DNA of 64,000 nucleotides. Source: Escherichia coli (lineage in GTDB: Bacteria > Pseudomonadota > Gammaproteobacteria > Enterobacterales > Enterobacteriaceae). The translations under genes were made by a program, and so were the position numbers. The stretch lies in NCBI RefSeq assembly GCF_050320075.1, contig NZ_CP190018.1; one strand, 5' to 3'. The first letter of the stretch is position 1, and each line of letters starts with the position of its first letter. Under the pieces are notes generated by a model that was given only the letters and a program-made list of their open reading frames with translations, had not been told where the DNA came from and made no database searches. Below are positions 50,283-50,470 of the stretch, one piece after another.

Positions 50283-50299
50283 GAAACAGTCTCACAATA

Positions 50300-50470
50300 A
50301 ATACAGGGGCCGACATGAAAGTGCCCGAAAATGACTTTTTTAGGCGTTTTCATGTCGGACCTTTTACGGATTCGATATTAGAAAAAACAAATAGTTATGT
50401 TCGAGAAGTACCGACATGATTTTCCCCAGAAAATTTTCATAAATAGCGAAAACCCGCGAGGTCGCCGCCC
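50300..50470. promoter_or_regulatory. cos site: cosN cohesive-end sequence (50459-50470) and a non-lambda cosB with three CCGACATG elements
   Basis: aggtcgccgccc is the reverse complement of GGGCGGCGACCT; CCGACATG at 50310-50317 and 50411-50418, inverted copy CATGTCGG at 50351-50358. Confidence 0.85.

Follow-up and report, generated by a model that had tools for sequence, protein, structure and literature searches.

The closest described relatives of the cos site presented here are those of phages lambda and 21, whose packaging specificities have been the subject of decades of genetic and structural work. Recognition and discrimination between the two phages are determined by residues 20 and 24 of the small terminase subunit (TerS) and by bp 56 and 59 of the R3 box of cosB (PMC4669245). 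That TerS sets the specificity for cosB with its N-terminal part and that for the large subunit (TerL) with its C-terminal part was originally shown with lambda-21 hybrids (hy51), which are viable and have the packaging specificity of phage 21 (PMC4669245, PMC9026076). Both types of DNA-binding domain have solved structures. The GenBank records OL657228 and M81255 of phage 21 carry annotated cos subsites and served as our reference for comparison. Counted from the cohesive end, R3 is annotated at bp 50-65, I1 (the IHF site) at bp 74-86, R2 at bp 107-122 and R1 at bp 150-166, R2 being described as 'in opposite orientation to R3 and R1'.

We analysed a cos region in a 64,000-nucleotide stretch of Escherichia coli DNA (the window), a chromosome segment that carries a lambda-like prophage with its late genes on the minus strand. 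Sequence comparisons lead us to conclude, with high confidence, that a lambda-like prophage at attB-lambda has its cos in this region and that the cosB has the packaging specificity of phage 21, a class into which it fits by every sequence feature available for comparison. This cosB specificity is not new but belongs to an already known, experimentally dissected type that is common in E. coli.

Prophage setting and cos subsites

An exact lambda att core (GCTTTTTTATACTAA) is present at 23791-23805 of the window, adjoining ybhB/bioA; the prophage therefore spans from ~23.8 kb to past the right end of the window, at attB-lambda. Over the 5.1 kb compared, strains Ec-U3 and YZLc1-3 are 100% identical to the window. 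In the minus-strand late operon, A is followed by the head and tail genes, and the annotation shows Nu1, A, W and the genes for portal, protease, capsid, tail and tail fibre as intact. Two genes of the prophage are annotated as pseudogenes. The coordinates of the features discussed below are collected in Table 1.

This attB-lambda prophage also harbours a series of genes with names taken from DLP12, namely emrE, ybcK, ybcN, ninE, ybcO, rusA, ylcG, essD/rrrD/rzpD and a gene of the YlcI/YnfO family. The gene names nohD, essD and rrrD raised the question of an identity with the defective K-12 prophage DLP12, which we rejected because the att core lies at attB-lambda and the terminase, head and tail genes are intact.

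Cargo genes separate the antiterminator gene Q from the lysis cassette (~53046-56445). They include an IS200/IS605 tnpA gene, and an insertion sequence at this place might affect read-through into the late operon. Two genes on the opposite strand lie between Rz and cos (50670-51371), and the 5' end of one of them, the DUF3950 gene, falls in the cos flank of ~250 bp that matches the right end of lambda at 250 of 253 positions. Just within the prophage end, between att and the tail-fibre genes, a gene on the plus strand (24511-25389) codes for a DUF2971 protein that matches the PADLOC candidate defence family PDC-S31 (E = 9.5e-38). This gene is possibly a prophage-borne anti-phage cargo, judging from that match.

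Table 1. Features of the cos region and of neighbouring prophage genes. Positions are those of the window; bp are counted from the cohesive end.
Feature	Position	Strand	Description
gpA (TerL), lambda-type	47837-49762	-	633 of 642 residues identical to lambda gpA; Pfam GpA_ATPase and GpA_nuclease
Nu1 (TerS)	49737-50282	-	Small terminase subunit; 181 codons
Nu1 codons 69-181	49737-50078	-	Lambda-type oligomerisation and TerL-binding part, by sequence comparison
Nu1 codons 1-68	50079-50282	-	21-type winged helix-turn-helix DNA-binding domain, by sequence comparison
21-type specificity cassette, ~350 bp	50081-50426	-	~bp 45-390; cosB and Nu1 codons 1 to ~65
cosB R1, TTTCATGTCGGCCCCTG	50304-50320	-	bp 151-167; core 50310-50317 (CCGACATG on +); aligns with phage 21 R1 150-166
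cosB R2	50348-50363	-	bp 108-123; opposite in orientation to R3 and R1; core CCGACATG at 50351-50358 (-), the cos-reading strand
cosB I1, putative IHF site, TAACTATTTGTTT	50385-50397	-	bp 74-86; reverse complement AAACAAATAGTTA
cosB R3, AATCATGTCGGTACTT	50406-50421	-	bp 50-65; core CATGTCGG at 50411-50418 (CCGACATG on +)
cosN core	50459-50470 (read 50470->50459)	-	12-base cohesive end GGGCGGCGACCT
cosQ, GGGTCCT	50494-50500	-	Packaging-termination subsite; aligns with OL657228 cosQ 42902-42908; lambda right end identical
YlcI/YnfO family protein (DUF3950)	within 50670-51371	+	77 aa
DUF1398 protein	within 50670-51371	+	141 aa
S/R/Rz	52852-51679	-	Lysis genes of the prophage
Frameshifted AraC-type HTH gene	~53046-53770		Q-lysis cargo
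YbgA-family gene	54122-55081		Q-lysis cargo
Lipocalin gene	55274-55798		Q-lysis cargo
IS200/IS605 tnpA	~55936-56394		Q-lysis cargo

The studied span, 50283-50470, begins at the base ahead of the Nu1 start codon, ends at the first base of the cohesive end and corresponds exactly to the left part of cosN plus cosB. The cohesive end had been described as lambda-like in an initial annotation of this DNA, and it is indeed identical to bp 1-12 of lambda; it is identical as well to bp 1-12 of phage 21, annotated there as the cos nicking subsite. The same annotation had pointed to three copies of CCGACATG, one of them inverted, in an arrangement resembling lambda R3, R2 and R1. These repeats coincide with the annotated R3, R2 (inverted) and R1 of phage 21, their cores being found at bp 53-60 (CATGTCGG, R3), 113-120 (CCGACATG, R2) and 154-161 (CATGTCGG, R1) from the cohesive end.

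The individual subsites were compared with those of phage 21. The R2 box is identical to that of phage 21 at 16 of 16 positions and is displaced by +1 bp, and R3 is identical at 15 of 16. The sole difference in R3 is bp 54, an A here and a G in phage 21, and A is the base that phage 21 has in its own R2 and R1. At bp 56 and 59 of R3, both the window and phage 21 have G and G, against T and C in lambda; over bp 51-60, the window reads ATCATGTCGG, phage 21 ATCGTGTCGG and lambda GGCGTTTCCG. The I1 site differs in one base from that of phage 21 (TAACTTTTTGTTT). Read as its reverse complement, it matches the IHF consensus WATCAANNNNTTR with one mismatch, and cosB has no other match with at most one mismatch. 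A single-base insertion between I1 and R2 brings the spacing between the R3 and R2 cores to 60 bp, as in lambda, versus 59 bp in phage 21. As this is the spacing of lambda, it is compatible with an IHF-bent complex. The complete layout of a complex cosB is present, with the cohesive end, R3 at bp 50-65, the order R3-I1-R2-R1 and cosQ upstream.

Six 21-type relatives, among them the divergent phage PhiR5_1, were aligned; invariant positions make up 65-77% of the R boxes and I1, versus 33-40% of the spacers. The R1 core TTTCATGTCG is unchanged across these six relatives.

A fourth copy of CCGACATG is found at 49841-49848 (-), inside the lambda-derived 3' half of Nu1, in the codons for ENRHVD and in the orientation of R2. 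We considered that it might be a remote accessory site like the rR2 of N15. However, lambda Nu1 also has the ENRHVDF peptide at this place, and the lambda sequence presumably contains the same 8-mer at these codons; hence, we regard the fourth copy as fortuitous.

Composition of the terminase and limits of the exchanged segment

The Nu1 protein matches the Pfam family Phage_Nu1 (PF07471) over profile positions 1-164 of 164, with a score of 302.6 bits for a cut-off of 30. Its best PDB matches are lambda TerS (6hn7, 1j9i) and 7lwr, whose sequence is that of residues 1-54 of phage 21 gp1. The initial annotation had described a Nu1 N-terminus unlike that of lambda followed by a near-identical remainder, and had proposed an alignment with both phages. 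That alignment bears out the description and identifies the type of the N-terminal domain. Residues 1-68 share 60 identities with phage 21 gp1 and 41 with lambda Nu1, and for residues 1-54 the values are 49 and 30, respectively. In contrast, 79 of the 80 residues from 101 to 180 are identical to lambda and only 31 to phage 21. The recognition helix (residues 17-24, RTIERWQS) is identical to that of phage 21 gp1 at 8 of 8 positions and to that of lambda at 5 of 8, with E20 and S24 as in phage 21, where lambda has Q20 and E24.

Phage 21 gp1 is matched at all but five of the first 54 residues; of these five, V30, G32, G34 and V37 are located in or next to the wing, which reads SGGGKGVES here and SKGSKGIES in phage 21. 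Lys35 of the wing is kept in the Nu1 proteins of the window, lambda and phage 21. The TerS wing touches the minor groove of the DNA.

The wing (codons 29-39, 50166-50198 on the minus strand) is VLRGGGKGNEV in lambda and CASKGSKGIES in phage 21, so that the GGGKG of the window is a lambda-like element inside an otherwise 21-type domain. It is accompanied by lambda-type nucleotides at four sites inside the 21-type block (bp 277, 282, 283 and 288 from the cohesive end), and 35 of 36 related viral contigs have this wing as well.

The C-terminal domain of TerS and TerL are both of the lambda type, which points to a lambda-type pairing of the two subunits. Five of the nine differences between gpA and its lambda counterpart cluster at residues 8-14 (IDILRRD vs VNRLRHF; 49721-49741, minus strand), in the N-terminal region just past the short segment in which A overlaps the end of Nu1. 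In a three-way DNA alignment, this segment had the appearance of a second 21-type patch at bp 733-753. The protein alignment showed that the N-terminus of the phage 21 protein is unrelated there, and the patch was therefore rejected as an artefact of the alignment and the segment taken as a local variant.

To delimit the exchanged segment, we scored each site at which lambda and phage 21 differ according to which of the two the window matches. Between bp 1 and 44 from the cohesive end, all four such sites are of the lambda type and none is of the 21 type. The segment from bp 41 to 390 has 121 sites of the 21 type and 19 of the lambda type, and that from bp 391 to 2700 has 802 of the lambda type and 27 of the 21 type. 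In total, the sites outside the cassette number 804 for lambda and 27 for phage 21. Sliding identity gave a similar picture, with ~80-93% identity to phage 21 within the block and ~97-100% identity to lambda past it. One crossover is placed at bp 44-46 and the other at bp ~380-404, each in a sequence that is conserved in both phage types, namely the spacer between cosN and R3 and the codons around residues 65-72. On the cosQ side, the segment 50471-50723 is that of the lambda right end at 250 of 253 positions and is unlike phage 21 beyond ~50 bp.

These results agree with the initial view that both flanks of cosN are lambda-like and that the cosB side next to Nu1 is not, the 21-type block starting at bp ~45. 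They also agree with its proposal of a packaging-specificity swap of the kind described for phage 21 versus lambda, to which the R sites, the recognition helix, bp 56 and 59 and the co-variation presented below all point. The comparisons make this proposal more specific, as they support the specificity of phage 21 itself on a lambda-type backbone. The donor of the cassette is a phage of the 21 class and not phage 21 itself, and the naturally arisen cassette has its laboratory counterpart in the lambda-21 hybrids.

Co-variation, distribution and competing interpretations

We fetched 80 loci of viral contigs that encode close relatives of Nu1, and 78 of them had enough upstream sequence to be scored. 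Helix type and R-core type co-vary in all 78. Thus, the 36 loci with the RTIERWQS helix all have three 21-type R cores and zero lambda-type core, and the 42 loci with the RTIQNWQE helix all have two or three lambda-type cores and are devoid of 21-type cores. The lambda-type C-terminal half of Nu1 is common to the 78 loci.

At >90% identity, the cosB is present in 655 of 5426 complete E. coli genomes, including 552 in which the match covers at least 80% of its length. Carriers include O157:H7 strains, whose Nu1 differs by one residue in the first 110 aligned. The isolated, plaque-forming phage IdasGreatGrand encodes an identical Nu1, and its cosB is 98.5% identical.

Phage PhiR5_1 (PV340545; L007 401-700) has variant R cores, CATGTCAG in R3, GATGTCGT in R2 (given in the orientation of R3) and CATGTCGT in R1, together with a variant TerS recognition helix, RTIDRWQT. 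In this phage, site and helix may have changed together to give another sub-variant of the 21 specificity.

Several other interpretations of the locus were weighed against a functional cosB of phage 21 specificity. The three copies of CCGACATG might be a chance cluster or the sites of an unrelated regulator. The number of copies of this 8-mer in the whole window is indeed unremarkable (4 observed vs 2.1 expected), and the fourth is evidently fortuitous. However, none of 3000 shuffled versions of the window had at least three copies within 120 bp, the copies coincide with the R sites annotated in phage 21 and are conserved while the spacers vary, and the R cores follow the TerS helix throughout the scored loci. 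The shuffles, the match to annotated positions and the co-variation led us to reject chance clustering, whose probability we consider negligible. It is also conceivable that the site, intact as it looks, is an inactive relic of a defective prophage and idles in this strain. E. coli lambdoid prophages are often defective, and this one has DLP12-named cargo, two pseudogenes and, in the Q-lysis interval, an IS200/IS605 transposase gene. Nevertheless, its terminase, head and tail genes are annotated as intact, all R cores are preserved, gpA is nearly identical to the functional lambda protein, and the same Nu1 with an almost unchanged cosB occurs in a phage that forms plaques. We therefore regard an inactive relic as unlikely.

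A more delicate matter is whether the locus could embody a third packaging specificity that merely resembles that of phage 21, such that the terminases and cos sites of the two would not be interchangeable. Such a divergence is suggested by the five substitutions in the first 54 residues, of which four fall in the wing or beside it, by an R3 with A at bp 54 and by an R3-R2 spacing of 60 rather than 59 bp. These features are outweighed by the full identity of the recognition helix and by the discriminator positions, bp 56 and 59 and residues 20 and 24, which are all of the 21 type (PMC4669245). Furthermore, an A at bp 54 also occurs in R2 and R1 of phage 21, the wing Lys35 is conserved in all three proteins, and a spacing of 60 bp is that of lambda. 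A third specificity thus seems very improbable to us.

The assignment to the phage 21 class leaves room for quantitative differences, with no sign of a new specificity in the sequences. Since the wing, bp 54 of R3 and the additional base pair of spacing all depart from phage 21, the affinity or the dependence on IHF could differ. An R3 whose core matches those of R2 and R1 (CATGTCGG), the 60-bp spacing and the GGGKG wing are all absent from phage 21, and the behaviour of the chimera may accordingly depart from that of phage 21. That it would do so measurably, for instance by packaging independently of IHF or with a relaxed or broadened discrimination, is in our estimation a rather remote prospect.

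Expected function and comparison with known packaging systems

By analogy with lambda and phage 21, a dimer of the 21-type winged helix-turn-helix of Nu1 would bind the R3 and R2 boxes through their CATGTCGG core, and IHF bound at I1 would bend the DNA by ~180 degrees and bring R3 and R2 face to face (PMC4669245, PMC9026076). R1 would be an accessory site. The lambda-type C-terminal half of Nu1 would hold the lambda-type gpA, which in this position would nick cosN 12 bp apart and initiate packaging by ATP-driven translocation, and cosQ would be required to end packaging at the next cos. The sequences themselves establish the anatomy, the homology to the annotated subsites of phage 21, the mosaic structure and the co-variation. 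Binding, bending, nicking and the exclusion of a lambda-specific terminase are inferred from published work on lambda and phage 21. As for the origin of the locus, the specificity module, made up of cosB and the DNA-binding domain, would have been exchanged by recombination within flanks conserved in both phages.

Beyond correct annotation, this identification is of little significance in itself. About one-tenth of the complete E. coli genomes carry the same cosB with a chimeric TerS, as does an isolated phage, and the E. coli records carry the site without annotation of the cos subsites. From the specificity class, one can predict the helper phages or cos-hijacking islands that could use the cos. 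The locus also illustrates the modular evolution of phages, with binding sites and their cognate domain swapped as a cassette of ~350 bp and an exchange that left the protein-protein interface between TerS and TerL untouched. Should the chimera turn out to behave unlike phage 21, it would be a natural intermediate in the evolution of packaging specificity.

Among known systems, lambda (NC_001416; PDB 1j9i, 6hn7) shares with this locus the cosB layout, the 60-bp R3-R2 spacing, cosN and cosQ, as well as the C-terminal part of Nu1, gpA and the attB-lambda integration site. The two are set apart by their R cores, CGTTTCC(G/T) in lambda and CATGTCGG here, and by their recognition helices, RTIQNWQE and RTIERWQS, respectively. 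Such differences in R core and helix underlie a >1000-fold discrimination between lambda and 21 in packaging (PMC4669245).

The cos and gp1 of phage 21 (OL657228, M81255, X02501) have the same cohesive end and cosQ, R boxes of the same position, orientation and core (CATGTCGG), a homologous I1 and an identical recognition helix. However, the cassettes of the two are only ~80-93% identical at the DNA level. Bp 54 of R3 is a G there and an A here, and one extra base pair is present here between I1 and R2. Moreover, this prophage has lambda-type sequence in the C-terminal two-thirds of TerS, throughout TerL and in the flank on the cosQ side.

The lambda-21 hy51 hybrids have the same build as the locus described here, combining cosB and the 5' part of the TerS gene of phage 21, with its helix-turn-helix, with the TerS C-terminus and TerL of lambda. 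In those hybrids, the whole left end (~600 bp) is replaced, including the sequence adjacent to cosN. In contrast, the exchange is internal here, from bp ~45 to ~390, and the 44 bp proximal to cosN are of the lambda type. Unlike the laboratory hybrids, the chimera described here is natural and widespread.
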